IMG/VR virus record: IMGVR_UViG_3300042540_000565
Span: 2,018-66,017 of that record
Strand: one strand, 5' to 3'
Source: a virus
Taxonomy: Duplodnaviria; Caudoviricetes
DNA length: 64,000 bases
Below the pieces are notes generated by a model. That model was not told the origin of the DNA. It worked only from the letters and a program-made list of their open reading frames with translations, and ran no database searches. Shown here in pieces: positions 3 to 61,091 of the stretch. The stretch's first letter is position 1. The number at the start of each line of letters is the position of its first letter. The position numbers and the translations under genes were made by a program.

Positions 3-44
3 TCCGTTGCGTCCATTAAAGATATAACCCAAGAACTTGAATAA
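3..44 (+). CDS. 3' end of an upstream ORF (SVASIKDITQELE*), truncated by the window edge
   Basis: Open frame from base 3 ends in TAA 42-44, overlapping the portal ATG (TAATG coupling). Confidence 0.45.
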   Translation, partial: SVASIKDITQELE

Positions 45-5673: not shown

Positions 5674-6435
5674 ATGCCTATCGATTCACAAGATATTGCC
5701 GATGCTATGAGAGCTGCGCTTGACGCAGAAGGAGCTGACTACTATAGTGATACTTTAGATATTATTCCAGCTATTAACGATTCAGTTCGTTGGCTGGAAT
5801 CTGTCGTTAATGCCACTATTGGACAGAAAAAACCAGGAGAAGAAATTTTCCGAGATCTATCTTATGCACATGTTTTCCGTACATCTAACTTTAGCCGACT
5901 AACATTAGCCGCCTTTCCATTCGAAGTATGGACGATAAATTCTGTAGAAGTAGAACCTGAAACATCTACCACCGGAGCCGCTGTTCCTGCTATGACGAAT
6001 GACAAGCAGAGTTATTACCGTCCCGACTTATTTCATGTTAGGGCAACGAAATACACAAAGAGACTTACTCAGGAAGAATGGACATATAACAGACAGAATC
6101 CATTTATGCCAGGATATGACGGAGTAGCTATATGCACAGGGGTACAAGAATACGCCTACTTAAATCCGGTTACTTACAATCCTGACAACACCGTTTCTAT
6201 TGCTTCTGAGATTGAGATTCGCCCTGTTGCAAACAAGGCATTGGTGACAGTTTTCTATTCAAAGAAACCAACTCCCGTAGTCGCTTTGGGAGACCCTATT
6301 GAGTTTCCTGCCACCGTATTTCAATTGATATTAGCCAAGTCGCTTGCTTACATCGCTTACAAACAAGGTGATGGAACTAACCTTTGGGGAGTTACTCAGG
6401 CAGACATTTCATTACTACTTAAAACAATTAACTAA
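5674..6435 (+). CDS. Tail ring/head-tail adaptor protein (crAss-like)
   Basis: 253 aa; N-terminal helix pair DIIPAINDSVRWL and C-terminal PIEFPATVFQLILAKSLAY typical of adaptor/ring proteins; position. Confidence 0.65.
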   Translation: MPIDSQDIADAMRAALDAEGADYYSDTLDIIPAINDSVRWLESVVNATIGQKKPGEEIFRDLSYAHVFRTSNFSRLTLAAFPFEVWTINSVEVEPETSTTGAAVPAMTNDKQSYYRPDLFHVRATKYTKRLTQEEWTYNRQNPFMPGYDGVAICTGVQEYAYLNPVTYNPDNTVSIASEIEIRPVANKALVTVFYSKKPTPVVALGDPIEFPATVFQLILAKSLAYIAYKQGDGTNLWGVTQADISLLLKTIN

Positions 6436-7169
6436 TGAGGGAGGTGTTTATATATTGTTTGATTGATCCGATTACAGGGCATGTAAGATATGTCGGAAAA
6501 ACTGTTGATTTATCAAGAAGATATAGATTACACATAAACCAAAAAGAAAATACATGGAAGGGTAAATGGATTCAGTCGCTTATAAAAAAAGATTTAAAAC
6601 CAAATCTTTTTGTTATTGATACTGTTAGTGATGAAGATTGGGAGTTTTGGGAACGGTTCTATATTTGCCTTTTTAAAACTTGGGGGTTTACATTAACTAA
6701 TTTGGATGAGGGCGGAAGAGCAACCAAATATAGAGCTAAAGAAACAATAGATAAATTAAGGAAAGCATCAACTGGTAAGCCAGGTTATTGGCTTGGAAAA
6801 AAAAGAGACCCAGAAATGGTGAAAAGAAGTGCAGATAAAATTAGAGGAAGAAAACAAGGTGAAGAAGAAAAGCAGAAAAGGATAAAAAGTTGTACAGGTA
6901 AAAAAAGAACTAAAGAGCAACGAAAGGCGATGTCCGATAGGTTAATGGGCAAAAAACTATCAGTGGCTCATAAAAAATCATTATCAGATGGTCACACAAG
7001 AAAATTGCCTGTCGAAATGTTCTCATTAGATGGAAAAAAGATTAAAACATTTAATTCCATAAAAGAGGCTTCTGATTATTTAGGCAAGGAACAAGCAACA
7101 TCTGGCATACTTAGGTGTGCGCGAGGAGAAAGAAAAACAGCGTTTAAATATAAATGGAAACTAATATAA
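6435..7169 (+). mobile_element. Free-standing GIY-YIG homing endonuclease with NUMOD3 repeats and C-terminal NUMOD1 HTH
   Basis: FIYCLIDP...RYVGKT...RRYRLH...E..YI...GFTLTNL nuclease motif; GKKRTKEQRKAMS-type repeats; KTFNSIKEASDYLG...ILRCARGERKTAFKYKW. Confidence 0.9.
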
Positions 7170-7173
7170 CTAT

Positions 7174-7896
7174 ATGACTTACAGAATAGTTGCGTACGAT
7201 TTATTAACATCTTTCAAGCGTGTGTTTGACGATGCTGATATTCGTATTACCCAAATAATTTGGTGGATTCAGGTAGTGGCCAATCGCCTCCGCGCTGAAC
7301 ATTATAACCTAAACAATACAGGTAGTTTTATTTCTACCTACTCTTCCGTTACGGTTCAGGTGGACAGTAAGGGTAGACCTTACATTGATCTTCCTGTACA
7401 GGTTCTTGATTTAATGAATGAGAAGGGTGTGGTTTATATTACATACAACGAGGAGACTTGTTGTTGTGATGGTCCGCCAATGGCTCAGGTATTTTTTCAA
7501 CCAACAAAAGTTTCAATGCTTAACAGATTATATGGTGATGAGTATGAAAAACCATCTCCTTCTAATCCGTATTTCTACAGGATAGGTCATCAAATGGATG
7601 GTGTAGATGTTAATCGATTATATTTATTGGGAACGGAATGTATTGTCGTTACAGACGTGGAGCTGGCTGTTATATCAGCCCTTGACCCATCACAGGTGTG
7701 CAGCTTGGATGACGAGATACCTCTTTCCCCTGAGCTTATAGGCATACTTCAAAAGGAGATCTTACAGCTTGGAAGATTTGTTATGATGGTTCCGTCTGAG
7801 CGTGTAAACGATGGTGACGATGACGCGAAAGCTTCAACAGCCGGTGTTCCTCAACAAATGGTTCAACAACAACAAGCACAACAAACTACTGAATAA
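7174..7896 (+). CDS. Tail ring protein (crAss-like)
   Basis: 240 aa; MTYRIVAYDLL...DDADIRITQIIWWIQVVANRLR start and DDEIPLSPELIGIL end resemble crAss-type ring proteins. Confidence 0.65.
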   Translation: MTYRIVAYDLLTSFKRVFDDADIRITQIIWWIQVVANRLRAEHYNLNNTGSFISTYSSVTVQVDSKGRPYIDLPVQVLDLMNEKGVVYITYNEETCCCDGPPMAQVFFQPTKVSMLNRLYGDEYEKPSPSNPYFYRIGHQMDGVDVNRLYLLGTECIVVTDVELAVISALDPSQVCSLDDEIPLSPELIGILQKEILQLGRFVMMVPSERVNDGDDDAKASTAGVPQQMVQQQQAQQTTE

Positions 7897-8675
7897 TGAA
7901 TAGTAACTCATTTGTATCCGTCAATCATATCCTTTCGGAGGTTACTGCTACCCTAAACGATAGGGAGTATCGTAACGGACTAAGCAAGGGATGGTATATT
8001 TCCCGTATTCAGGATGCTTTACAGGAATTAGCTTTTGATTCTTTTTACCAAAAGATTACTCGTGATTTTGATTTTCCTTCTGATGATTTAAAAATTGAGA
8101 TGCCGGCAAACGCATTTAACCTTCGTGAAATCTACGGATGGAATGGAAGCTGCTGCTCTCCTCAAACGTCTGCTATTATTTACCCTAAGCGATTATTCAA
8201 TAACAAGGGTGGTGACGGAAGAGGATATACCGCAAGAGTTAAAAAAACAGGAGAGTCTATTGGCAATGATCCATTTCAGCCTAACTATACAAATGATGGT
8301 AATTTCACTAATTACCCTGACGTAAAATTCTACTATAATATTCAGAATGGCGTAATCATGTTTAGCTCATCATGTGCGGGCTTCCAAAAGATACGATTAG
8401 TATATAATGGTATTGGTGTTGAAGATATCGGTGACTATCCATCTGTGCCTCGTTTTTTCGAGAGAGCTATCAATGATTATATTGCTGAAAGATATTATGC
8501 CGTTAAGCAAGGCGAAGACCCTCGTATGTGGGTTACAATGCACGATAGAGCATTGGCACAGCTTAATGATTACCGTGATGGGAACTGGCATAAATCTATT
8601 CGAAGAGTTAAGTTCATGGATACCGCTGAAAAGGAAGGGTACGAAGAATATTTCTCTAACCCACTTCATAAATAA
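7896..8675 (+). CDS. Tail ring protein (crAss-like)
   Basis: 259 aa; SFVSVNHILSEV start and PSVPRFFERAINDYI; directly before the muzzle gene. Confidence 0.65.
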   Translation: MNSNSFVSVNHILSEVTATLNDREYRNGLSKGWYISRIQDALQELAFDSFYQKITRDFDFPSDDLKIEMPANAFNLREIYGWNGSCCSPQTSAIIYPKRLFNNKGGDGRGYTARVKKTGESIGNDPFQPNYTNDGNFTNYPDVKFYYNIQNGVIMFSSSCAGFQKIRLVYNGIGVEDIGDYPSVPRFFERAINDYIAERYYAVKQGEDPRMWVTMHDRALAQLNDYRDGNWHKSIRRVKFMDTAEKEGYEEYFSNPLHK

Positions 8676-8677
8676 TT

Positions 8678-11600
8678 ATGCCTAAACAACAACATTGGAC
8701 ATACGATATCCGCACCTTAAATAATGGCGCTAATCGTGATTTAGAGGATGAGTTAGTATTCCTTGAAGATGGATCTTATATTGATGCTTGTAATTTTCGT
8801 GTTGTTTCAATGGGAGGGGATTATGCCGCTGCCAAAAAAATAAATGGAGAGGAATTGCTGTATCCGAATATCGATAACCGTTGTAACGGAGGTACGGGTG
8901 CAGCCCTTTCCGCCAATTATGAATGTATAGGAGCTGCAGAGATTAATGACCATATCATTGAATTTTGGGCAGACTCTGCAAGTGTTGAGCCTTCTTTAAT
9001 TAGAATAGATGGACAAATAGTTTTATATTCTGTAGATTTTCCTTTAACATATAATCACCTTCTTCAGATTGCAAAGAATGAATCTTGTATAGGTGGCGAA
9101 ATTTATATTACAGACGATAATGTTCCTCCGATGATTTTCAATATCGAGGACTTGATGGAAAAGTCTGCAATGATAAACAATGGTATTTGTAGTGAAAAAT
9201 ACTTTACTGAATTTAATCTGGCAGAACATCAACTGCAAGTTACTAATCCAATTGACCATCCTGTTTTTATAAAACTTACCTCTAACCAATCCGGATATAA
9301 CGCTGTGTTTGGAAGTGGTGGTTTGCCTGTGGGAACATATTCTTACCAAATAAGATATTCGACTACTGCGGGAGATAAAACCATTTGGAGCGTTCCAACA
9401 CCTCTTATTCCGGTTGTAAGTAGGCTTTCTGCGGGATGCTCCCCTACATTTCCTAATATGCAAACGCATGGTAAGGACCCGGACACAAGTTCTCCATCTC
9501 TCTACGGTATTCACCTTAAGTTTAGAGTGAATAACATAAATAATTTCGACTTCATGGAGATAAGGAGAAATAGCTTTAATGCTGGAGATCCTTTTGGTGT
9601 GTTGCCTGTTTCAGAACTTATAGGCTCTATAAATATTACTAATGGTTTAGTTGGTGTTTTTAATATTCTTGATAATGGTTCTCAGGCAGAGGAAAGTCTT
9701 TCTCCTGACGAGGCAGCTGAGTCTATGGGAGCTATTCAGAAAGCTAAGGCGATTAGATATTTCAATGGGAAATTATACTTAATGAATATTGAGTATGCTT
9801 CGAGAGATGTATCAAATGATATTACTTTTGTTGATGCAGGACCAACTTCAATGTTTCCTATCGTAGAAAAGATTTATAAGGCAGGATTAAAGGATGCGTG
9901 GAAATATACTTATAATCGTCCCTATATGGATGGCGAGAAGTATGGTTTTGCGGCTGTGCTTTATGATGACAACAATCAGTTTACATACGCTGTACCTATT
10001 ACTGACTTTGAGAATTTTCAGATGCCAGATAGAAGAGACGTTCCTTCTGCTGACACTATTAACCATAGTTACTTTGGAATGTCTGATGCTGCTCGTATTG
10101 ATGGTACTATAGGTGAGTCGCACGAGATATTTGATCTTGATAACGCTGTATCTAAGTCAGACGCATGTTCTTTTTTAAATATACTGAATACATCAGGATC
10201 AGGTAAATCATTTGGATTTGATGCTTATAATGTTTTTGAATTAGGATGTTCGCCATCCGGAGACGTAAGCACAAATTCTATTGGTTTTAAACCATTAACA
10301 CCGACATCTCAAAATGACTTTAGATGTGACGGAACAGACTATGTTGTAAATACATGGATATCTAATAACATGGGTCTTACGCGAAAAGAATATAACCCAC
10401 AAGGTTTTGCCCCTAACTACTATTCCGCAGGAATGGCATTAAAAGGATTAGAATCATATCCTGATTGGGCTAAGGCTTTTTCTATTGTTCGTACCGCTCC
10501 CGCAAAGCGTGTTGTCGCTCAAGGGATAGGATATTATTCTTTAACAGACGACCGAAGTAAAGATACAAATGAGTTTTGGTTTTATTCACCTGACACAGAT
10601 GCCGGAACATCACTTGAGCCAGGAATTGTAACTGATTTAATGGATAATCCACAAAATTATTCTGTTGAACTTGTATCTCCTCTTGGTTTTTTCACAGAGG
10701 TATATTCTTCAAATTTTGATTTAGTAAGAAATAGTGGAGTTGACTTAATAACATACGCAAGGATTATAAAAGAAAATGCTAATAATCCTCAAATGAATCC
10801 TGATGAAGATCCACTAAGAGGAATAACATCTGGTAACGATGCTTATACATGTTTTGGCGCGTGGAGAGCACCTATATCAGGCACGAATATTTTTCCAAAT
10901 GGAAATGCTACTGGACTTGTTGGTAAGACAATAATGTCAGTTTCAGATGTAACTGACAATAGGACGCAATATTTAAAGCTTCGATTAAGTTCAAATGTAT
11001 ACAATACACCTTCATCAATATTTACTAATGGAGATAATTCTTTTGTTAGAAAATGGCACGAGCCTCTTTATATCGTAAACATTGTTCGAAGGGTTGCTGA
11101 TATCGCGGATTCGAATATTCAAAACTATATCCATACAGGACACTACCAAAAAATTGAATCTTTGGTTGGTATTTCAGATGGATCAAACGGACAAGTTTTT
11201 GACTTAGTTGATGAGAGATGGGAAGATTGTATGCCTTCCATAAATGGAATGGTAACAAATCCTTATTCAGGACTATTTAGATTTGTGCATATAGACTATG
11301 GTGATGAAATTAAAAAAAGATGGATAAATTCTTCCAACCTAACCATAGCACAACTTACAAATATTTACGCTCAATTAACTGCTTCGGGTGTCGCAACAAT
11401 CATTGAACCTGTAACACTTGAGTCATTTCAAGTTTATGGTGTTTATAGCCAATCCCAAACAACAGATAGTACAGCTCCGGTTTACAGATTAAATTTCCAA
11501 CAATTAACCGCAACCGTAAGTAGTGTTTATTTTAATCCTCCGGCTACAAGTAAAATTTATGTTCTCTATGATAACCGAATTCCTGTAAGATTTTTTGGTG

Positions 11601-35931: not shown

Positions 35932-36239
35932 ATAGGTAAATCATTTTCATCATCCATCTTAAATTTAGGTTTCTCTGGCTCCCCGCCACCTCCCTTATAA
36001 AGTTTTTGGGCGAACTCTTGATCATCCTTTTTAGAGATAACTACTTTTAAAACTTTCGTATTTATTGTGGGGTCCCAATGAATCCATCCAAGAACAACGT
36101 AATCGTTTCCTTCCGCATCAAACTTATTGGTGAACCCTATCAGATCGGGGTGGTTAGGTTTTAGCTTACGAATGTTTGGTTTCATCACCAACTTTACTTG
36201 GTGGATAACCTTCTCGAAGAATGCTCTTTTATCTTCCAT
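35928..36239 (-). CDS. Small beta protein with an SSB-like acidic tail (DENDLPI), DUF736-like
   Basis: PNHPDLIG motif and acidic/hydrophobic terminus. Confidence 0.45.
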   Translation of the reverse strand: MEDKRAFFEKVIHQVKLVMKPNIRKLKPNHPDLIGFTNKFDAEGNDYVVLGWIHWDPTINTKVLKVVISKKDDQEFAQKLYKGGGGEPEKPKFKMDDENDLPI

Positions 36240-36705
36240 TGAGTTTGTCTTTTAGGTTAATGATATACGACATTACCGCATCCTTTTTATGGAGCCAAAT
36301 AATTTGATGTTTCACCCCTGATGTTATGAGTTGATAAGAAAGCATTTTATATTTCATCTTCGACTCTTCCGTTTCGAATCCTTTGGTGTCAAAATAAATG
36401 AATGTTCCATCAGGAAGGTTAATCCTAAAGTCAATAAACATATTCATCCGCTTGATTGTTTCTCCCTTCCAATTAACGTGGGATGGGAATAGTTGATACT
36501 TGAATTGGTAATCAAATTTGAATTTGAATTTGGTTAACATCTCATAGGCGTATAGCTCCAGCTCGGAATCGAAGGTTAGACCGTATCGTTCCACCTTATT
36601 GTTGTTATACTTCTGTCCATTGCCTTGTGATTTCTTTTTGGACTTACCCCATCCACCGGAAGCTGCTAAAGCTTTAGCTTGGTCAACGCTTATTTGCTCA
36701 CTCAT
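36229..36705 (-). CDS. PD-(D/E)XK endonuclease, DUF1064 family
   Basis: KYNNNKVERYGLTFDSELE...FIDFRI...YFDTKGFET. Confidence 0.8.
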   Translation of the reverse strand: MSEQISVDQAKALAASGGWGKSKKKSQGNGQKYNNNKVERYGLTFDSELELYAYEMLTKFKFKFDYQFKYQLFPSHVNWKGETIKRMNMFIDFRINLPDGTFIYFDTKGFETEESKMKYKMLSYQLITSGVKHQIIWLHKKDAVMSYIINLKDKLNGR

Positions 36706-39193: not shown

Positions 39194-39490
39194 TCATATA
39201 ATTTTTATTTTATTATTTTTAATTGCCTCATCAATTTCAATTCCTGTTTTAAAGAAGGGCGTCTTACCATCCCCCTCCTCCACGAGCCATAGGCAGAGGG
39301 ATTCCCATTCTTTGTTAACGGTTACATTAATGACCGCTATAACCTTTTCCCCTACCATAAACTTTTGGTGGGGTTCAAATCCTGTTCCACCTTTTTCATT
39401 CCATAGAGGTTCCGCCCACTCTTGGGTTTCCATTACCGTCTTGGAGGGCAGGAGGTGATCGTAGTTAGTATTGGTTAGGGTTAGAAACAT
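39194..39490 (-). CDS. Hypothetical protein
   Basis: 98 aa ORF coupled to the primase-helicase stop. Confidence 0.5.
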   Translation of the reverse strand: MFLTLTNTNYDHLLPSKTVMETQEWAEPLWNEKGGTGFEPHQKFMVGEKVIAVINVTVNKEWESLCLWLVEEGDGKTPFFKTGIEIDEAIKNNKIKII

Positions 39491-41271
39491 TAGAATGGAA
39501 TATCTTGGTTGTCATTATTAAATTCGTGATTCGGTTCTATAAAACTCCTTGCAGGCTCCATCCTTAATTGAGGGAGGGGAGCTTCAGTTAAAAGGTTGTG
39601 GGTTTGTGGCGACATAAACTTGTCATACATCCTTCCGCTTGGCTTGTGCCACCTAAACTCAATCTCTGAACCAATATCTCCTTGAAAGGCATATTTAACT
39701 TTTAAGTTTTTAAATACTGTCCAGTTATCATTCTCATCAAAGACTCTGTGAATCGCATACCCACAATGAGTTTGGTTTCTAAAGTCAGCCGATCCGGAAA
39801 CATCGTAAAGGTCCGGCATCTTCATAACTCCATCCCTATTCATTTTTGTGGGGTGGGCAACTAAAACAATTAAAACATTGTGAGCTTGAGCAAAAGAGGT
39901 AAGCCTACTTAGTGCCCAATTAATATTCTCACGTTCTGTTTTCTTTCCGGTAAACTCAACCTTGTTGAAGGCATCGATAACAAAAATATTTATACCGTAT
40001 GAATAAATCTGTTCGGTAAACTTTTCAAATATCCAATCCCAAGTTGCGAAGCCTCCATCATCAGGGCTTGTTAGGTAAAGCTTTTGGTCAGCCCAATCTA
40101 TGTATTGTTGGATTTCCTGTTTCGAAACTCTTGGTGTTCCATCCATATCAAAGAAGTAATTCTTCCCGATTACCTTCTGAACAAAGGTGGATTGGTGAAG
40201 TTCCATCGGTTGATGTTCGGGCGAAAAGAAGCTGGCTTTATAATCATTCTCAACCAAAAGGTTTATTACATACCATTCCGTAAAGTTACTTTTTCCATGT
40301 GAAGGTATTCCTGTACAGACAATTAGCTGCCCAAACATAGCCTTGAAAATATTATTCATTCTCTCAAAGGTTGGGTTCTTTACCTGAATGGTTGGGGGAA
40401 GCCCCTTATCGTAAAGGTCAATCATCTTTTCAGACAAGTCCTTTGCGGTGAAGGTTCCACTAACAGGATAAGACGTGGTGTTTTTAACGCTTTTTTCGAG
40501 TTCTCCTGCAATTAAATCCTCGTTGGCATCCTTTCCTACCCAATTTATCCGTTCGCATCTGTAGCGACCTAAACGCTGCGCCATCTTTTCTGCTATCGCA
40601 TTTCCCTTCTCATCATTATCCACCCCGATATAGAATTTCTTTACATCCTTCAGGTAGGGTTCTGAGTTAATCCAGTACTGATCGTTATCATTCGCTCCGT
40701 TGGGTACTGATACTACATTCTTAATCCCTATTTGGATTAAGCTAAGTACATCAATCTCACCCTCTACGATATAAAGTTCGTTAGAAAATATTGCCGAGTT
40801 TATATTGTACAGGATAGGCTTACCATCCTTGGATTGGGTGAAGTTTTTACCCGCATCTCTGTACTTCTTATTCACCAACACATCACCCTCAAAGTAATTG
40901 AAAACAATATTGTTAACTTCCTTTTGGGGGCGGGGCTGATAATACTTTTCCTCGGTTATGTTCATGTCCTTCAGAACATATTGCTTTATTCCTCTGCCTT
41001 CAAAATACTTTACTAACCTGTCTGATAGTTCGGTGTAGTTCGTCCACGTTTGGGGAGGCAACACATACTTCTTTTGGGTTTCAAACTCAACCTTGTCACG
41101 TATTGATATCGCCTCACAGTAGTGACAAAGGGCCACGCCCTTGTCAATGTTTACCGATAAAGATCTGTCTGCCTTATTTGACCTTGTTGGATTACAGTCC
41201 GGGCACTTTGTCTTAATGTTCCCAGAGTTCTTTCCGCCAAGGTTAATATCCTTCCATTCAATTTTCTTCAT
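39490..41271 (-). CDS. Bifunctional primase-helicase (T7 gp4/Twinkle-like)
   Basis: Zn finger CPDC...CHYC, TOPRIM VEGEIDVLS...GVDND, Walker A TGIPSHGKS, LVAHPTK, SGSADF. Confidence 0.92.
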   Translation of the reverse strand: MKKIEWKDINLGGKNSGNIKTKCPDCNPTRSNKADRSLSVNIDKGVALCHYCEAISIRDKVEFETQKKYVLPPQTWTNYTELSDRLVKYFEGRGIKQYVLKDMNITEEKYYQPRPQKEVNNIVFNYFEGDVLVNKKYRDAGKNFTQSKDGKPILYNINSAIFSNELYIVEGEIDVLSLIQIGIKNVVSVPNGANDNDQYWINSEPYLKDVKKFYIGVDNDEKGNAIAEKMAQRLGRYRCERINWVGKDANEDLIAGELEKSVKNTTSYPVSGTFTAKDLSEKMIDLYDKGLPPTIQVKNPTFERMNNIFKAMFGQLIVCTGIPSHGKSNFTEWYVINLLVENDYKASFFSPEHQPMELHQSTFVQKVIGKNYFFDMDGTPRVSKQEIQQYIDWADQKLYLTSPDDGGFATWDWIFEKFTEQIYSYGINIFVIDAFNKVEFTGKKTERENINWALSRLTSFAQAHNVLIVLVAHPTKMNRDGVMKMPDLYDVSGSADFRNQTHCGYAIHRVFDENDNWTVFKNLKVKYAFQGDIGSEIEFRWHKPSGRMYDKFMSPQTHNLLTEAPLPQLRMEPARSFIEPNHEFNNDNQDIPF

Positions 41272-46143: not shown

Positions 46144-46704
46144 TTAAAATTGGTTTTTAAGATTAGTTAATTCTTCTGTTATGTATTGTAGTTTAATTGC
46201 AGGATGACTTTGTTTTAAGTTTGCGTCCCACAACTCTTCTGTATTACTTTCAATAGCTGTTATTAATTCATCTATTAAAACCCTCACCTCTCCAATAGAG
46301 AGGGGCGGTCTCATAGGTTTAACTTCCTGACCATCGGGTATAGATACTACGTTACCATCTTCATCGTAGCACTCTTCGTTAAACACATCAGGTATCCAAT
46401 CACTATAGTAGTAGTCATCATCATCAAAGGCTTCTTCGAGAGACGCATAACCTCTGTTCATTGCTATTTTAAGGGCTGACTCTTCGTCAATGGCGTACTC
46501 TTCACCATTACCGAAACAATAACCCTCATTCATTCCCTTGCCTGTTATATTACATTTACGGGCATACAAGTCAGGCTTTTTACTTCCTACCATAGGATAC
46601 CATATCCCGTTCGTTTCCTCCCAATAGTATTGGTGGGGGTTATCAATACCGGAGGCATCATGTACCTGTCCTGTAATTTGGCTAAATAGTTTTGGTCTGC
46701 TCAT
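46144..46704 (-). CDS. Hypothetical early protein
   Basis: 186 aa; CNITGKGMNEGYC motif, acidic. Confidence 0.5.
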   Translation of the reverse strand: MSRPKLFSQITGQVHDASGIDNPHQYYWEETNGIWYPMVGSKKPDLYARKCNITGKGMNEGYCFGNGEEYAIDEESALKIAMNRGYASLEEAFDDDDYYYSDWIPDVFNEECYDEDGNVVSIPDGQEVKPMRPPLSIGEVRVLIDELITAIESNTEELWDANLKQSHPAIKLQYITEELTNLKNQF

Positions 46705-47263
46705 TAGTTGTTTCCTCCTTAATTTTAGTTAGGTATTCATTGTATTCATCATCGGTTAGAAATTCTTTTACCTCGTCCAATATATTCTTAGTTAGGTTAT
46801 CATCCTCCACGAAATAATCTAACTCAAAACCAAGCCTATCTCCTTCGTACTTACCCACATATTTTAGATAGCTCAGGCAGTCATCACTCTCACTATCCTT
46901 TGTGCACTCATACTTACCACCAAAGTCGCATCCTGGTTCGTTGTATTCATTCTCACATTTAACATCAAAGGTTTCAGCAATACGTTTTAATAAAGGATTG
47001 CATGGCGACCATGCTGTGTCGCAGGTGATACTTGTAGACTCCGTTATATCCTCATCAATCCATCCTGTATCTATCCACTTAGTCCCACAGGATTCGTACA
47101 CATCCTTTTTTTCTTTTTCTTCAGGGGTGAATATAGATAGGTCGGTGAGGTAATTAATCTTATCATATTCATCTTTCAATTCTTTTACCCAAAAGGCTAC
47201 TGCCTTTGCTACATTCTCTTTACTTCCCGTAATAAGAATGTAATTACTACAATTATTTGCCAT
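46682..47263 (-). CDS. DUF1281/YubB ferredoxin-like domain protein
   Basis: MANNCSNYILITG...GTKW...CDTAWSPC...YNEPGCDFGG motif set. Confidence 0.75.
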   Translation of the reverse strand: MANNCSNYILITGSKENVAKAVAFWVKELKDEYDKINYLTDLSIFTPEEKEKKDVYESCGTKWIDTGWIDEDITESTSITCDTAWSPCNPLLKRIAETFDVKCENEYNEPGCDFGGKYECTKDSESDDCLSYLKYVGKYEGDRLGFELDYFVEDDNLTKNILDEVKEFLTDDEYNEYLTKIKEETTNEQTKTI

Positions 47264-47841: not shown

Positions 47842-47877
47842 AAAAAAGCCCCCTACTTTCGTGTATAGGGAGGGAGC
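47842..47877 (-). terminator. Intrinsic terminator (minus strand)
   Basis: GC-rich hairpin followed by TTTTTT on the minus strand. Confidence 0.5.
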
Positions 47878-48566: not shown

Positions 48567-48591
48567 AATGTTTTTGTTTTAAGGTTAGTTA

Positions 48592-49367: not shown

Positions 49368-50378
49368 TCATAACTCATCCTTTCCGTCATTAAAGCCATA
49401 ATCATAGTCGTAGCCATCGTACAATAGCGTACACTCAACGTAGCGGGTTACTTCCTCCTGAGTCATCTTGAGTAAATCCTCCACGTCATTTCCATCAACA
49501 GCCATTATAGTCTCACCTGACTCATCGGTTACATACACCTCATTGTATCTATAGCTAACCTCTACTCTCAGTCGGTAGTCTTGTATGTCTACATAGAAGT
49601 CCAGGTCGGGTTTGTCCGTATCTACTTTAACAGAAGGCTTACCAAAGTAGTCCTTACACTCCTTACATAGATAACAACCGTCATCAAAACTATATGAGGC
49701 GATATTATCATTACACCACTCGCAATCGGTAGTGTTTTTCTTATAGCTTTTCTCTGCCTTTACAGGGTTCATAGTGTACGGCTCGTACTTGTATGAACCT
49801 CGTGCTATTTTAGTGCCGCCATAATCAAGATACTGACTAACGTACTTGTATGTGTCATTACTAAACCAGTTACCATCTGCCCAGTGTCCTTTACTCTCAC
49901 CAATAATAGACCACTCGTTTTTAGAGTTGAGGAATATTAATTTTGAATAGTCGATAAAGTCAGAGAGTAACTTCCCGATACCTTCGTTATGTTCGAAGCC
50001 TGACGGTAATGACTTAAGGATTGTTTGATTGAATAGGTATGTGTCCGAGAAGTCGGGGCTACTACCTACACCTCCAATGATACCGTTATGTACAAAGCCA
50101 AGGTCATCGTTGACCATAAAGGGATGGCAATTTGTTTCGTTAATCTTACCGTGAGTACTGATACGGAAGTGAAGCACAAACCAAGAAGACTTATTACGCT
50201 TCTTAGCTTCTTTGTAGTGCTTAAAGTATTTCTTGAATGATGTTAACTCCTTGAAGGAAGTTAGTACTCCATTCTCAATATAGAGCATACCTGCTCCGTC
50301 TGAATTGTTTTCCCAACAATTGTTTAATGTCTGCTTAGACAATACATATTTCGGGGTATTTAAAATTGCTATACACAT
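49368..50378 (-). CDS. Class II (Ntn) glutamine amidotransferase with a C-terminal Zn-finger-like region
   Basis: Met-Cys start MCIAI, NSDGAG, HFRISTHG, NCHPF, HNGII, SDT; CEWC...CKEC. Confidence 0.9.
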   Translation of the reverse strand: MCIAILNTPKYVLSKQTLNNCWENNSDGAGMLYIENGVLTSFKELTSFKKYFKHYKEAKKRNKSSWFVLHFRISTHGKINETNCHPFMVNDDLGFVHNGIIGGVGSSPDFSDTYLFNQTILKSLPSGFEHNEGIGKLLSDFIDYSKLIFLNSKNEWSIIGESKGHWADGNWFSNDTYKYVSQYLDYGGTKIARGSYKYEPYTMNPVKAEKSYKKNTTDCEWCNDNIASYSFDDGCYLCKECKDYFGKPSVKVDTDKPDLDFYVDIQDYRLRVEVSYRYNEVYVTDESGETIMAVDGNDVEDLLKMTQEEVTRYVECTLLYDGYDYDYGFNDGKDEL

Positions 50379-50404
50379 GATGTTTTTGTTTTTAAGGTTA
50401 ATGA

Positions 50405-51655
50405 TTAGGCTAATTCTTCTTGAGATTGTTCTGTCACAACAAATGGGTGGATGTTGTTAATGACAAAGTCATTGTACAGGCGGGAGTAATTGACAAACTT
50501 GTTAGCCTTATCAAGAATCTGCTCGGCTGAATAAACCTTTCTTAGATGCTTATGTAATTTAGACTTGCAGTTAACCAAATCTTTCAAGACTTGCGTTTCT
50601 GACTTACAGAATCCCTTACAAATAATTTGCATGAAGGTTAATCTCCATAAAAGGTTGCTCACATTTTTCACAGCAGAAGGTATTCTAAATTCGACTGTCG
50701 TATCACGAACATAGAAGGCAGAGTACTTATCTTTCTTATAAGCCATCTCCTTTTTCTTTTTGGCTTTACAGTATGTCTGCTCCATTCGTTTCTCATACAT
50801 CGCATAGAATAGAGGGAAGTAACCTGATAGCCCCTCGAATATCTCATCAGGGGAATACTCGTTATGTCCGATATGGATATGCCCACCACACGAAGACGTA
50901 TAGTTACCGTTGATAAGATCCTTAACACTTGTGATTGAGTTGGTGATGTACTTTGTGTCCATAAGTGAAAGGATTGGGGATATTAACTCATACCCTGTCG
51001 CATCATCGAGGGAGCCATCTTTTTCCTTACACCAGGCGGTATCTTTGTGTATTTTACCCGCATCGACTCCTACCATCTCGACATCTTCTTTCTCTACCTC
51101 GAAGCCTACAGACCAACCTTCTTTTGTTCGCTTATCCATTCTTCTCATACCGTGATAAGATTCGTTGCCGTTAGGCACGTTATCATTATCATCATCATCA
51201 TCCGACCACATTTCATCGGCAGGTAGATAGTCTTGGTAGTGGTCACAATAGTAGTAGTCGTTATCGTTAGCTATACGTTCAGTCATAAAATAATGGTCGT
51301 GTCGCTGAGACGAACATCTTTCATCATTATCCTCGCTGAAATATCCCTCACTCCATCTTCTACCAACAATTCCCCATATAGAGTTATCACGATAATTAAA
51401 CTCTTGGGTGTCCTCTTGGTACACTACATCGTAATGGGATTGGTCAGCCATTAGGATTGTCTCGTCATCACAGATGATAATAATGTCGTCATCTGGTGAA
51501 CAGAAGTGATTATCTAACAGGCTTACGGCTTGTGCTGTCAAACAATATTCTCCGTCATTGTTACCCTTATCTAATAGGGTGCAGTTTTTTAACAGGGCAT
51601 ACTTGCCTGTGTACATTAGGACAATTTCTGTCCCATTAAGCGTTTCTTTAATCAT
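50405..51655 (-). CDS. Putative amidoligase (COOH-NH2 ligase, Amidoligase_2 family)
   Basis: SYH...VGFEVE...KDGSL...YELISP...SCGGHIHIG...KYSA...TVEFRI. Confidence 0.88.
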   Translation of the reverse strand: MIKETLNGTEIVLMYTGKYALLKNCTLLDKGNNDGEYCLTAQAVSLLDNHFCSPDDDIIIICDDETILMADQSHYDVVYQEDTQEFNYRDNSIWGIVGRRWSEGYFSEDNDERCSSQRHDHYFMTERIANDNDYYYCDHYQDYLPADEMWSDDDDDNDNVPNGNESYHGMRRMDKRTKEGWSVGFEVEKEDVEMVGVDAGKIHKDTAWCKEKDGSLDDATGYELISPILSLMDTKYITNSITSVKDLINGNYTSSCGGHIHIGHNEYSPDEIFEGLSGYFPLFYAMYEKRMEQTYCKAKKKKEMAYKKDKYSAFYVRDTTVEFRIPSAVKNVSNLLWRLTFMQIICKGFCKSETQVLKDLVNCKSKLHKHLRKVYSAEQILDKANKFVNYSRLYNDFVINNIHPFVVTEQSQEELA

Positions 51656-51686
51656 TTTGTTTTGTTTTAAGGTTTAAGAATTATTA
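51642..51686. repeat. Direct repeat copy 1 (copy 2 at 52031-52076)
   Basis: GTTTCTTTAATCAT-(5/6 nt)-TTTGTTTTAAGGTTTAAGAATTATTA. Confidence 0.85.
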
Positions 51687-51702
51687 AAGGTTAATTTATT
51701 TT

Positions 51703-52044
51703 TTATGCTTCACTATATACTTGTACATCAATTCCTTTTCTTGTTGTGAAGTGATATCTGTGGTACATCTTCGTTTCGTACTCATCAAGAAGTTTTATAT
51801 CATCTTCCGTGAACTCATACACTGTCCCATACACACACCCTTTATCGTGTTCTAATAATCTTGGGTATAAATCACCATCAACTAAAAAGTCACGAGTTAC
51901 TACAAATCCATCGAGAGAATCGGGTTTCCCTTCTATAGTTCTTCCTAATATCTCTAATTGAACCGCTGGTTCTTGAATTGTTCCGTAACAAAATAGTTTT
52001 ATTTTCTTTTCGTAATCAGTAACGGTAAGTGTTTCTTTAATCAT
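51703..52044 (-). CDS. Gamma-glutamylcyclotransferase (GGCT/AIG2-like)
   Basis: LFCYGTI...YPRL...VYGTVYE...LLDEYE...YHR. Confidence 0.88.
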   Translation of the reverse strand: MIKETLTVTDYEKKIKLFCYGTIQEPAVQLEILGRTIEGKPDSLDGFVVTRDFLVDGDLYPRLLEHDKGCVYGTVYEFTEDDIKLLDEYETKMYHRYHFTTRKGIDVQVYSEA

Positions 52045-52076
52045 TGTTTTTTTGTTTTAAGGTTTAAGAATTATTA
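52031..52076. repeat. Direct repeat copy 2
   Basis: Near-identical to 51642-51686; spans the start codon and leader. Confidence 0.85.
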
Positions 52077-54646: not shown

Positions 54647-54679
54647 TAAAAATAAGGAAGGGGCCGTTGCCCCTTTCCT
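54647..54679 (-). terminator. Intrinsic terminator downstream of the candidate ncRNA
   Basis: AGGAAAGGGGC-AACG-GCCCCTTCCT followed by TATTTTT on the minus strand. Confidence 0.7.
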
Positions 54680-55995: not shown

Positions 55996-56071
55996 AATGT
56001 TTAAATTTTAAGGTTATTAATTATTATCAATTATTTGATGAGACAAAGTAAGGTTGTTTAAATTACTTATG

Positions 56072-58690: not shown

Positions 58691-59079
58691 AAGTAATATT
58701 ATTTTTAGATGACTTTCGAAACCCCTTCAAAGAAGGTAGGGTTCACCTTCCCGTAAAGGGGGAGGAAGAAGAGTCTGTGGTGTGGGTAAAAACATTCCAA
58801 CAGTTCAAAAGCTGGATAGAAGAAAATGGATTGCCTGATCATATATGCTTAGACCACGACCTACATAAAGAACACTATCACAAGGATATGTACAAAGGAA
58901 TGGCGGCTTATAATAAACACTACCAAACCTTTGAACATAAAACAGGCAGGGATGCTGCTATGTGGCTTATCAAATATTGTAGTGATGAAAAAAAGCCCGT
59001 CCCCAAATGGACAGTCCACTCATCTAATCCTGTGGGGAAAGAGAATATAAAAATGCTACTTAAAGCCTTTACAAAATAA
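58687..59079 (+). CDS. Cyclic-phosphate-processing receiver domain protein
   Basis: LFLDDFRNP...VWVKT...ICLDHDL...TGRDAAMWL...VHSSNPVGKENI, the characteristic motif set of this receiver-like family. Confidence 0.8.
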   Translation: MKVILFLDDFRNPFKEGRVHLPVKGEEEESVVWVKTFQQFKSWIEENGLPDHICLDHDLHKEHYHKDMYKGMAAYNKHYQTFEHKTGRDAAMWLIKYCSDEKKPVPKWTVHSSNPVGKENIKMLLKAFTK

Positions 59080-61091
59080 TGCCCATAGAAACCTCAGAAT
59101 GGAAGATTAATAAACATCCTCTGGATTACGATCCGGAACTAATATCGTGGATAAAAAAAATCAATATCGATTTTAGAAAAAGAGGCAAGTATAAACCATT
59201 CGAACTATACTGTAAACAAGCCCAGGAGTGGGCGGATGACCCGTTCACATTGGCGGATTGTAAGGACTATGACGAACAAGTATGGTGGCTAAAAAGAAAC
59301 CATATCCGCTGTAAAGAAAATACACTCTTCTATGCCAATCAATATGGCGTTCTAAAGGATGGTTCTGGAGAAGGCGGTATCACAAAGTTCGAGTCTTGGG
59401 AAGGTCAAAAGATTGTCCTCCACCTTCTCGATAGAGGATACTCAACCATGATCGGTAAGGGAAGGCAGTTTGGTTTCACCTCCGTAATGGGGATATTCGC
59501 TAATAAAAAGATAAACTTCAACAAAAACTTATTCATAAAATTCGTTACCCATAACGCAGATAAAGGTGTCGAAATATTCTTGGATAAAATCAAATGGCCA
59601 TTCGGTCAGATACCCGATGCTATCCGTCACCACGTAGTTAACGATAGAGATAACCTACTAAAGCTGGGAGAGAAAGAAGAGAAAGGTAAAACACGAGGGA
59701 TGGGTTCGTCCGTTAAGGTGGATACCCCCGCTGTAGATGCCATCAATGGTGGTTCACCGGATATTGTAATGATTGATGAGATTGGTCTATTTGATATCTT
59801 CGGAACAATGATGCGTGAGGGTAGACCGACAATGTTTAGGTACGACCCCGTACTGAAAAAGCAAACTATGGTTAGACAGCTAATAGCTTGGGGAACGGGA
59901 GGGCAGATGGGAATGGGAGCCACCGCCTTTGAGGAGGAGTTTATGGCAGCCATCCATTCATTTAATGAAGGTAATCTTAGCTACGGTATCATCCCAATAT
60001 TCTTCAATGCCTTTGCTCGTGAAGGTTTGACACAAGAAATGTTCGATGCTGAAAAAGCAAAATACTATAGCGTTCAAGGTAGAGAAGGAGAGATAGCCAG
60101 GGTTCAGTTCCACCAACATTACCCTATGTCTATTGAGGATATGTTCCTGCGTACCGCATCTACACTCGTTCCTGTCGGAGAGATAAATAAAAAAATGCAG
60201 GTCATCTATAACATGGACCCTAAGCCTAAGCATGGATATTTTGAACCGATAATGAATAATCAGGATCAGATTATCGGATGTAAGTTTGTGCCCGTTGGTG
60301 ATGATTCAAATATGATTGCCCCCGTTACTATTATCGAAGAACCGGAGGATGGCTATGACCATAGATACTACCAAGGTACTGACCCCATAAGCTCGGAATC
60401 GGGACACTCAAAGATGGGGTCCGCAATTATCGATGCCCAAAAAATGTCTGTTTCTGCCTTCGTAAACTTTAGAGATAAGGATCTAAAATATGTATTTGGG
60501 CAAGTATTAATGCTCGGATTGTATTATCGTGGCGGAACAAACCCCTGTGCGATGGAACTTACAGAGGCAAATATTGGTGACTTCTATTTCAATTTCAAGA
60601 AGGATAATGGATACGAAACTTCCTTCACTCCTCAACGTGCCCTACCGGCTTTCCTCCAAATTAATACCCAAAAATGGTGGGGTATAAGTAACAAGGTGCA
60701 GACTAAAGGGAAGATTATAACCAAGCTTTCGGAGCTTATAGATGGCTACGGTGATAACATTATGTGCCTTCCATTTTGGGTGCAACTAAAGACCTTCGTG
60801 GAGAAATCTCTTGTTCCTAAAAATGGTACACAGACACAGAATACCGGAAGGCTTACAAGCTACCAAGCTGCAGATTTGAGAAGGGATTATGATGACATGA
60901 TCTTCGGAATCGTATATGCCTACATAAATGTACTGGCTTATCAAAGGTTTGAACCCGTTAGTGTTGGATCTTCAATACAAGGAAGCGGTAAAACAATGGT
61001 CAAGTATATGCAGAACGCACAAACTGGATGGGCAAGAAGACGCTGTTTAGTAGATAGTAAAGGAAAAATATTGAAAATGGGCGTAACTTAA
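59079..61091 (+). CDS. terL: Terminase large subunit
   Basis: Walker A GKGRQFGFTS, Walker B VMIDEIG, RNase H-like YQGTDP...SKMGS...YDD. Confidence 0.92.
   Translation: MPIETSEWKINKHPLDYDPELISWIKKINIDFRKRGKYKPFELYCKQAQEWADDPFTLADCKDYDEQVWWLKRNHIRCKENTLFYANQYGVLKDGSGEGGITKFESWEGQKIVLHLLDRGYSTMIGKGRQFGFTSVMGIFANKKINFNKNLFIKFVTHNADKGVEIFLDKIKWPFGQIPDAIRHHVVNDRDNLLKLGEKEEKGKTRGMGSSVKVDTPAVDAINGGSPDIVMIDEIGLFDIFGTMMREGRPTMFRYDPVLKKQTMVRQLIAWGTGGQMGMGATAFEEEFMAAIHSFNEGNLSYGIIPIFFNAFAREGLTQEMFDAEKAKYYSVQGREGEIARVQFHQHYPMSIEDMFLRTASTLVPVGEINKKMQVIYNMDPKPKHGYFEPIMNNQDQIIGCKFVPVGDDSNMIAPVTIIEEPEDGYDHRYYQGTDPISSESGHSKMGSAIIDAQKMSVSAFVNFRDKDLKYVFGQVLMLGLYYRGGTNPCAMELTEANIGDFYFNFKKDNGYETSFTPQRALPAFLQINTQKWWGISNKVQTKGKIITKLSELIDGYGDNIMCLPFWVQLKTFVEKSLVPKNGTQTQNTGRLTSYQAADLRRDYDDMIFGIVYAYINVLAYQRFEPVSVGSSIQGSGKTMVKYMQNAQTGWARRRCLVDSKGKILKMGVT

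Follow-up and report, generated by a model that had tools for sequence, protein, structure and literature searches.

A compact ligase, glutaminase and cyclotransferase gene trio in a novel tailed-phage genome: a constant gene pair and its optional companion

The stretch of DNA analysed here, 64,000 nucleotides (nt) from IMG/VR record IMGVR_UViG_3300042540_000565 (positions 2,018 to 66,017), referred to below as the window, is a novel tailed-phage genome that carries at 49368-52044 three intact, co-oriented minus-strand open reading frames (ORFs), separated by intergenic gaps of 47 and 26 nt. They encode a carboxylate-amine ligase of the amidoligase type (AMI), a class-II glutaminase-like protein of the N-terminal nucleophile (Ntn) kind (GAT) and a gamma-glutamyl(amine) cyclotransferase of the GGACT family (Table 1). 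The trio is a compact, divergent member of a known phage cassette, and what is new here is its obligate two-gene core, formed by the ligase and the glutaminase, the presence of domains specific to this subfamily, and the accessory status of the cyclotransferase, which is fused to the glutaminase in one other phage and has apparently been inserted recently in this one. We read the pair, tentatively and with somewhat less than even confidence, as a two-subunit, glutamine-dependent, ATP-driven enzyme that would amidate or ligate carboxylates, with the cyclotransferase as an optional helper.

Constant association of the ligase and glutaminase genes

An alignment-based scan of IMG/VR with the ligase returned 79 loci encoding ligase relatives. 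In all 74 of the loci whose sequence continues beyond the ligase gene, the directly adjacent gene on the same strand encodes a glutaminase of the family collected in alignment A2 (46 partner glutaminases), with a median gap of 26 nt, and several of the pairs overlap; the five loci without a glutaminase stop at, or within ~160 nt of, the ligase stop codon. The ligase gene precedes the glutaminase gene in 63 cases and follows it in 12, the window being included in these counts. This clustering is far beyond chance, and such constant adjacency is what one would expect of subunits that make up a single enzyme.

The cyclotransferase follows another pattern. A profile built on 30 sequences detected it in only 2-3 of the 79 ligase loci, and it is missing from ~96% of those bearing the pair; just one other locus (L014) has it beside the pair, and L068 contains a weak match 3.7 kb off. 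A scan from the cyclotransferase side, carried out with an alignment of seven GGACT sequences, revealed the order cyclotransferase, ligase, glutaminase in one more contig lineage (L084/L085), so that this arrangement is present in three separate lineages (the window, L014/L082 and L084/L085), together with four loci in which a GGACT gene occurs without the pair.

Two side observations concern these loci. Where the gene order is reversed, a conserved ORF of 364-524 amino acids (cluster C2, 14 loci) with no Pfam match is found directly upstream of the glutaminase gene and may be a third component of this sub-lineage. In L013 and L021, the glutaminase ORF call overlaps the ligase ORF by 125 nt (7791-8921 versus 6389-7915), which is probably an over-extended start call and not a real overlap.

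Table 1. Coordinates of the genes, domains and sites discussed in the text (window positions unless a locus is named; aa, amino acids; pLDDT, predicted local distance difference test score).
Feature	Coordinates	Strand	Remarks
Cyclotransferase gene P0003	51703..52044	-	113 aa; GGACT/AIG2-like gamma-glutamyl(amine) cyclotransferase
Ligase gene P0002 (AMI)	50405..51655	-	416 aa; Amidoligase_2, glutamine-synthetase-fold carboxylate-amine ligase
Glutaminase gene P0001 (GAT)	49368..50378	-	336 aa; stand-alone class-II (Ntn) glutaminase-like
Ligase N-terminal beta-rich domain, residues 1-150	51206..51655	-	pLDDT 74-95, mostly 85-95
Ligase polyacidic D-rich linker, residues ~151-166	51158..51205	-	predicted disordered, pLDDT 42
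Ligase catalytic domain, residues 178-385	50501..51124	-	motifs FEVEKED, KExDGS, ExxSP, CGGHIH and ExR invariant
Ntn glutaminase domain, residues 1-180	49839..50378	-	Cys2 nucleophile, R72, T75, N98-G99, D112
Glutaminase C4 zinc ribbon, C219, C222, C238, C241	49656..49724	-	nearly invariant in A2 family
Glutaminase acidic C-terminal beta/alpha domain, residues 256-336	49371..49613	-	28% Asp/Glu
Ligase leader and first six codons (MIKETL)	51635..51686	-	source copy of duplicated start region
Copy at head of cyclotransferase gene	52025..52076	-	~51 nt, differing at 3-4 positions
TAACCTTAAAACAAAAACA-type leaders	48567-48590, 50379-50400, 51656-51686, 52045-52076, 55996-56020	-	
Terminator-like hairpin downstream of trio	47849..47872	-	pattern match; possible transcription-unit end
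Terminator-like site	54658-54675		pattern match; possible transcription-unit start
Portal	44-2284	+	portal PHROGs, E 2.7e-25
Primase/helicase	39490-41271		trio lies upstream
TerL-like protein	59079-61091		
Cluster C2 loci (L033, L035, L042, L052-L054, L056, L066, L070, L071, L074)	e.g. L042:4058-5260		

The ligase

The ligase matches the Pfam family PF12224 Amidoligase_2 with E 2.9e-6 and 27.8 bits (cut-off 22), in an alignment covering residues 213-272 only, and the PHROGs family phrog_2443, named 'amidoligase enzyme', with E 5.8e-5. A database search yielded 560 homologues, many of them on contigs of 58-68 kb, and the group is also represented by an Atlas cluster of 795 members; when IMG/VR and the JGI metagenome contigs were scanned with a pattern from the ligase alone, no confirmed relatives emerged. 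In an alignment of 24 homologues (A1), the invariant residues comprise E186, E188, K189, E190 and D191 of the FEVEKED motif, E211, D213 and S215 of KExDGS, E223, S226 and P227 of ExxSP, and also C256-G-G-H259, R290, E322/R324 and W337/R338. We infer that these could correspond one-to-one to the metal- and ATP-binding residues of glutamine synthetase (GS).

The fold assignment comes from an AlphaFold2 model built on A1, with a mean pLDDT of 88.8. In structural comparison by VIA, residues 178-385 are closest to the YbdK-like structure 1tt4 (Z 9.5, root-mean-square deviation (rmsd) 3.6 A, 184 residues aligned), with human GS at Z 8.8, yeast GCL at Z 8.7, GmaS and 1-naphthylamine GS at Z 8.4-8.6, and Dop/PafA at Z 7.0-7.3. 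The top 19 rows all belong to the superfamily of GS, Glu-Cys ligase, YbdK, GmaS, Dop and PafA (Z 7-9.5), the next row being at Z 4.8, and Foldseek relates the model to GS with E 2e-5. At the sequence level, the ligase profile gave no match at E up to 10 among the sequences of solved structures.

The catalytic domain is preceded by a beta-rich domain and a polyacidic linker, after which comes an SYH motif whose Y167 is invariant in A1 and whose H168 is nearly so; this layout of N-domain, linker and SYH is common to most A1 homologues. Residues 1-165 contain 23% Asp/Glu and six Cys. Compared with LIM, FYVE and RING folds, the N-domain reaches a VIA Z of ~3, and its Atlas feature score to LIM clusters (0.79) is below the trust level. 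With these values, and with cysteines that are not conserved in A1, a LIM-like identity was rejected and retained as a lead only; since its Cys residues are not conserved, the modelled domain is likewise treated as no more than a hint of a protein-binding adaptor.

The glutaminase

The glutaminase falls 0.6 bit under the cut-off of 23 for PF13230 GATase_4 (22.4 bits, E 6.4e-5). Among the 46 members of its family, 33 match PF13522 GATase_6 (best E 1.6e-15) and 30 match PF13230, and the PHROGs assignments agree with Pfam for ligase and glutaminase alike. M1-C2, N25, G30, H70, R72, T75, H85-P86 and H97-N98-G99 are invariant in A2, and S111-D112-T113 are conserved in at least 90% of the sequences; we take these residues to be the nucleophile, the ligands of the alpha-carboxylate and alpha-amino groups of glutamine, and the oxyanion pair of GlmS/PurF-type glutaminase domains. 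The A2 profile matches the GlmS glutaminase domain with E 6e-8. The AlphaFold2 model has a pLDDT of 82.5, and VIA comparison of residues 2-180 places EgtC (Z 13.5, rmsd 3.5, 167 residues aligned) and the glutaminase domain of GlmS (Z 13.3) at the top, GFAT and the PurF-type PPAT both scoring Z 12.1.

There is no synthase domain in this protein, residues 181-336 being occupied by a linker, a zinc ribbon and an acidic domain, and it is thus a stand-alone glutaminase-type subunit and not a canonical single-chain amidotransferase. The glutaminase shows a weak match to a DksA-like zinc-finger PHROG (E 0.0065). When residues 201-336 were searched with phmmer against 4751 ORFs of the related loci, only the self-match was recovered, and the structural matches of the C-terminal domain are weak, with Z 5.3 or less; a resemblance to AcrIF24 and to Dip of phiKZ (Z 4.5-5.3) is within noise and was discarded.

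The cyclotransferase and its apparent insertion

The cyclotransferase matches PF06094 GGACT in Pfam over residues 17-109 with E 3.5e-12 and 47.4 bits (cut-off 22.8). An exhaustive profile-free search of the full library recovered 670 relatives, the best of them 50% identical, whereas a word-indexed search gave the self-match only. In the 30-sequence GGACT alignment, F18, Y20, G21, Q29, G73, E90 and Y110 are invariant and T22 is kept in at least 90% of the sequences. Residues 20-22 form the motif YGT (YG[ST] type), and E90, which presumably corresponds to the catalytic Glu of human GGACT, lies within LDEYE (LDxYE).

Judged by their conserved residues, all three proteins look catalytically competent. 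An earlier first-pass annotation of this DNA, made by a model from the letters alone, had described three adjacent co-oriented genes with intact-looking motifs, belonging to the amidoligase, Ntn-glutaminase and gamma-glutamylcyclotransferase families. The exact coordinates and the invariance of the catalytic residues in the alignments bear out the first part of this description, and Pfam, family and fold evidence the second. It had also mentioned extra acidic or Cys-rich domains on both larger enzymes, which correspond to the acidic, six-Cys N-terminal region of the ligase and to the C4 ribbon and acidic tail of the glutaminase; the ligase N-domain and linker, and the glutaminase ribbon, turn out to be family features and not oddities of the window phage.

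The head of the cyclotransferase gene is peculiar. The first 13-15 residues of the protein are an extension missing from all 29 aligned relatives, and the first six codons, together with ~30 nt of leader, reproduce the start of the ligase gene almost exactly. The ligase is regarded as the source of this copy because its closest relative (P0004, 75% identity) also begins with MIKETLN. Taking into account that the extension is unique among relatives and that the start region was copied from the ligase, the cyclotransferase looks like a later insertion ahead of an older ligase-glutaminase pair. Part of the copy, AACCTTAAAACAAAAACA, is a generic leader that is likewise found in front of the glutaminase gene and of at least three further genes of the block. 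The idea that 45-bp repeats make the cyclotransferase an excisable cassette was upheld only in part, about half of the repeat being the generic leader motif.

As an observation on the leaders themselves, a motif of roughly TAACCTTAAAACAAAAACA, followed by 2-3 nt and ATG, stands ahead of at least five minus-strand genes of the leftward block, and AGGAGG-type leaders occur at a few other genes of the block (54021, 53703 and 46704), which suggests that two types of translation-start context may be used within one phage.

Comparison with known systems

The phiEco32/RIO-1/LUZ24-type amidoligase cassette, attributed to Iyer et al. 2009 (Mol Biosyst 5:1636) and Hardies et al. 2013, is summarised in PMC5498523. 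In the phiEco32 record (NC_010324), the cassette (gp77-gp86) belongs to a leftward block that ends at the primase/helicase gp75; it encodes a COOH-NH2 ligase (gp86), an amidoligase (gp84), a glutaminase protein of 676 amino acids (gp83), a RimK-like ligase (gp80) and a gamma-glutamyl cyclotransferase (gp77). Both in phiEco32 and in the window, therefore, the amidoligase, class-II glutaminase and GGCT/GGACT Pfam families are encoded on one strand just upstream of the primase/helicase, in agreement with the earlier statement that the trio is known from comparative genomics of phages such as phiEco32. However, the phiEco32 genes, with two ligases and a RimK-like ATP-grasp protein, are spread over ~8 kb with interspersed small ORFs, whereas those of the window form a compact group of three. 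The A1 profile of the window ligase does not match gp84 or gp86 at E up to 10, the Pfam family being the only link between them, and the glutaminase profile matches gp83 weakly (E 7e-10 over ~55 residues). The beta-rich N-domain, the acidic linker and the zinc ribbon are specific to the window subfamily when compared with the phiEco32 cassette.

Closer to the window in its glutaminase is the amidoligase-GATase pair (gp06 and gp07) of the OM43 phages MEP401 and MEP402 (PMC10580990), which are the closest cultured-phage glutaminase partners, with 37-40% identity and a profile E of 1e-73 for MEP402 gp07. In MEP402 the ligase gene lies immediately upstream of the glutaminase gene, with a 10-nt overlap, and near primase and helicase genes. 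Unlike the window phage, these phages lack the cyclotransferase and have a betaproteobacterial host, and the MEP402 ligase (548 amino acids) is missed by the window ligase profile and is marginal in Pfam (E 9e-4). To judge from MEP402 gp07 and phiEco32 gp83, conservation is better in the glutaminase than in the highly divergent ligase.

Caudoviricetes sp. ctfjg026 (MW202828.1) is the sole GenBank phage record to be matched by the window ligase in tblastn (E 1e-8). It encodes an unannotated amidoligase of 574 amino acids followed by a 405-residue protein (L080:4968-6185; MW202828.1 47708-48925) in which the glutaminase domain and the zinc-ribbon region are separated by an inserted GGACT domain (residues 167-273, E 7.5e-18). 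Thus, the cyclotransferase is fused inside the glutaminase in this phage, whereas in the window it is a separate upstream gene. Identity at the sequence level is low, ~23-24%. The fusion protein is annotated in the record merely as gamma-glutamyl cyclotransferase.

Among cellular class-II amidotransferases and gamma-glutamyl pathways (GlmS, PurF, AsnB; EgtA/EgtC; GmaS; MurT/GatD), there are counterparts to the fold and the catalytic residues of the window glutaminase domain, to the GS fold of the ligase and to the logic of a glutaminase or gamma-glutamyl hydrolase acting with an ATP-dependent ligase. Nevertheless, the window glutaminase, a separate domain of 180 residues with a zinc ribbon, differs from the synthase-fused cellular enzymes, and the catalytic domain of the ligase is minimal, with ~210 residues against 350-450 in GS. 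To our knowledge, there is no cellular enzyme in which a class-II glutaminase and a GS-fold ligase are combined as subunits of their own.

Proposed mechanism and alternative explanations

Ligases of the GS fold activate a carboxylate with ATP and then add ammonia or an amine to it; class-II Ntn glutaminases cut the gamma-amide of glutamine, and EgtC cuts a bulkier gamma-glutamyl amide; GGACT enzymes transform a gamma-glutamyl-amine into the free amine and 5-oxoproline. The established enzymology of the three families has gamma-glutamyl amides as its meeting point. In the reading that we favour, GAT would use Cys2 to attack glutamine or a gamma-glutamyl amide and hydrolyse its gamma-amide, releasing ammonia or an amine, and AMI, with ATP, would convert a carboxylate into an acyl-phosphate able to capture the nucleophile released by GAT, leading to an amide on some host metabolite or macromolecule. 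The cyclotransferase would be facultative and would act on gamma-glutamyl amides carrying a free alpha-amino group, as a second amine-releasing or clean-up activity. Since the pairing is obligate, a heteromeric glutamine-dependent amidoligase is the most economical model, and, since the cyclotransferase is optional and was once fused to the glutaminase, it fits as an accessory for nucleophile supply or clean-up. Most likely it acts on the glutaminase side, and erasing what the ligase has made would not be its obligatory task. The physical complex of AMI and GAT, the transfer of ammonia, the direction of the reaction, its timing and its target are what we infer within this model.

Several points weigh against it. 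EgtC and GlmS tie as structural matches of GAT, and EgtC hydrolyses a bulky gamma-glutamyl amide and supplies no ammonia, so that GAT could act after the ligase and not before it. All characterised enzymes that match the modelled ligase fold activate glutamate or a C-terminal glutamate, which would favour a gamma-glutamyl product over the amidation of another carboxylate. The model assigns no role to the conserved N-domain, to the acidic linker or to the zinc ribbon. No fusion of AMI with GAT was found in a search for long fused forms of the glutaminase, a search that amounts to weak evidence. Finally, the literature searched contains genome-annotation mentions only, with no biochemical or genetic test, product or target of any cassette member, and in this respect the first-pass annotation, which knew of no demonstrated product or target, was correct. 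Direction is the chief uncertainty: the tie between EgtC and GlmS, and the fact that the fold relatives of the ligase act on glutamate, make room for the first two of the following alternatives, in which a gamma-glutamyl-amine would first be made by the ligase and then be cleaved by its two companions.

The first-pass annotation had proposed a write/erase logic for the trio, with the conjecture that superinfection or immunity could be blocked by modifying, for instance, polymers of the host surface. In the form considered here, the ligase would place glutamate, through its gamma-carboxylate, on an amine of a host protein, envelope polymer or small molecule, and the cyclotransferase, releasing 5-oxoproline, perhaps with the help of the Ntn hydrolase, would reverse this reaction. 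The fold matches are consistent with such a scheme, in that GS, GmaS and Glu-Cys ligases make gamma-glutamyl amides, which are cleaved by GGACT enzymes and by Ntn hydrolases of the EgtC type; the motifs of the window GGACT protein are intact as well. However, the supposed eraser is missing from nearly all loci bearing the pair and looks like a recent insertion in the window, and an obligately co-transcribed writer and hydrolase acting on one bond would constitute a futile cycle. Moreover, the single fusion found links two cleaving-type domains, the glutaminase and GGACT, an arrangement more in keeping with a helper of the glutaminase than with a dedicated eraser. We thus consider the explanation unlikely; while the families, the extra domains and the link to a known cassette stand, write/erase as the integral logic of the trio is not supported.

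A second alternative would make the gamma-glutamyl group a transient handle, with which the ligase would tag an amine that a host enzyme then modifies, the Ntn hydrolase or the cyclotransferase stripping the handle afterwards. Steps of this kind are carried out by EgtC in ergothioneine synthesis and by BtrG in butirosin synthesis. The glutaminase domain finds its best structural match in EgtC, gamma-glutamyl-amine synthetases (GmaS and 1-naphthylamine GS) are among the top ligase matches, and bacterial gamma-glutamylation pathways as a rule combine a GS-like ligase with an amidohydrolase. But no gene for an intermediate-modifying enzyme is conserved beside the pair, where the flanking clusters are small ORFs, it is not obvious why a lytic phage should need such chemistry, and a 150-residue adaptor-like N-domain and a zinc ribbon are unusual in small-molecule enzymes. 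This explanation is, in our opinion, rather unlikely.

The interpretation stated for the RIO-1, phiEco32 and LUZ24-type cassette, which later papers credit to Iyer 2009 and Hardies 2013, is peptidoglycan remodelling for superinfection exclusion, and it is presented in purely inferential terms in PMC5498523, PMC10580990 and PMC11318856. According to it, the pair would amidate or extend the D-iso-Glu or meso-DAP carboxylates of stem-peptide precursors, and the cyclotransferase would recycle the fragments. Glutamine-dependent amidation of such carboxylates is known in bacteria, as described for MurT/GatD in PMC3267633. Nevertheless, the second amidoligase and the RimK-like ATP-grasp of the larger cassette were not found in the window (Pfam scan of 44 ORFs at 36-64 kb), no envelope-targeting signal or peptidoglycan-binding domain was detected in the trio proteins with Pfam and PHROGs, and a strictly lytic phage would gain little from superinfection exclusion by slow wall turnover. 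For these reasons, we regard remodelling of the wall as distinctly unlikely.

Least probable of all, and very unlikely in our judgement, is a pupylation-like ligation, in which the Ntn enzyme would deamidate or prepare Gln or Glu and the ligase would attach it, at a lysine or a carboxylate, to a host or phage protein selected by the LIM-like N-domain: the fold matches of the ligase include Dop and PafA, the N-domain gives weak leads to protein-binding zinc-finger-like folds and the phiEco32 cassette includes a RimK-like protein glutamyl ligase, but no tag-like small ORF is conserved beside the pair, the LIM-like leads are under the trust thresholds, and the retention of D112 and R72, which bind free alpha-amino and alpha-carboxylate groups, favours free glutamine or a gamma-glutamyl compound over a peptide-embedded residue.

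Significance

The cassette is among the more widespread phage enzyme modules without a known product, being present in coliphages, in marine phages, in phages of Pseudomonas and of mycobacteria, and here in a large group of uncultured ones. On account of its constant adjacency, the ligase-glutaminase pair is what should be studied as a unit, the cyclotransferase being dispensable and going with the glutaminase according to one fusion. The conserved non-catalytic domains of the subfamily may select a macromolecular target, and the identity of the product, if found, could reveal a new way in which phages rewire host chemistry. The cultured phages phiEco32, LUZ24 and MEP402 are easier systems for this purpose than the uncultured genome of the window.

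In its most far-reaching form, the heteromeric amidoligase reading would make the pair a phage-specific enzyme that, during takeover, installs an undescribed amide modification, either carboxylate amidation or a gamma-glutamyl-amine linkage, on a macromolecule of the host, be it a protein recognised through the LIM-like N-domain or a cell-wall precursor, the cyclotransferase being an interchangeable amine-releasing or editing module. This extension is a speculative proposal that we think will probably prove wrong; if true, hundreds of uncultured phages would share a class of modification enzyme that is new for phages.

Genomic setting and expression

The virion module of the window belongs to a lineage without cultured relatives, since the portal had no tblastn match at E 1e-5 in 50,697 GenBank phage records. 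The primase/helicase is 56% identical to its counterparts in Flavobacterium phages, which makes a Bacteroidota host plausible, as had been supposed in the first-pass annotation, with Flavobacteria as the probable group. In a search at the DNA level, the trio had no relatives among GenBank phages.

The trio is part of a block of minus-strand genes that extends from ~56 kb to 36 kb; it lies upstream of the replication genes, and its neighbours are small ORFs without a Pfam match. The Pfam scan covered 44 other ORFs, drawn from this block (36-56 kb) and from the following plus-strand genes at 57-64 kb, and detected among them no ATP-grasp protein and no further amidoligase; the structural block at 1-36 kb was screened in part, through eight of its largest ORFs and with PHROGs alone.

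Between the three genes there is no terminator-like site with a strong stem. Promoter patterns of the sigma-70-like and Bacteroidota types (TTTG...TAnnTTTG) did not exceed chance, so that the timing of expression is not readable from the sequence. The first-pass annotation had spoken of an early-expressed trio among host-takeover ORFs, a reading drawn from position only. From the position of the block and the parallel with phiEco32, it is a reasonable guess that the trio is early, and the module would probably be made before or during DNA replication.

A neighbouring ORF of 193 amino acids (46682-47263, minus strand) contains a DUF1281_C/Api92-like ferredoxin-like domain (E 5.5e-9), and DUF1281_C-like ORFs are located 1-3 kb from the ligase-glutaminase pair in 16 of the 79 related loci. 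This neighbour was considered as a part of the system and rejected, its recurrence in those 16 loci only being probably a matter of conserved synteny and not of functional partnership. Other products identified by Pfam among the non-structural ORFs are a protein with a cREC_REC cyclic-phosphate-processing receiver domain (E 8.9e-22), two HNH endonucleases, a Phg_2220_C protein and a DUF1064 protein (36229-36705).

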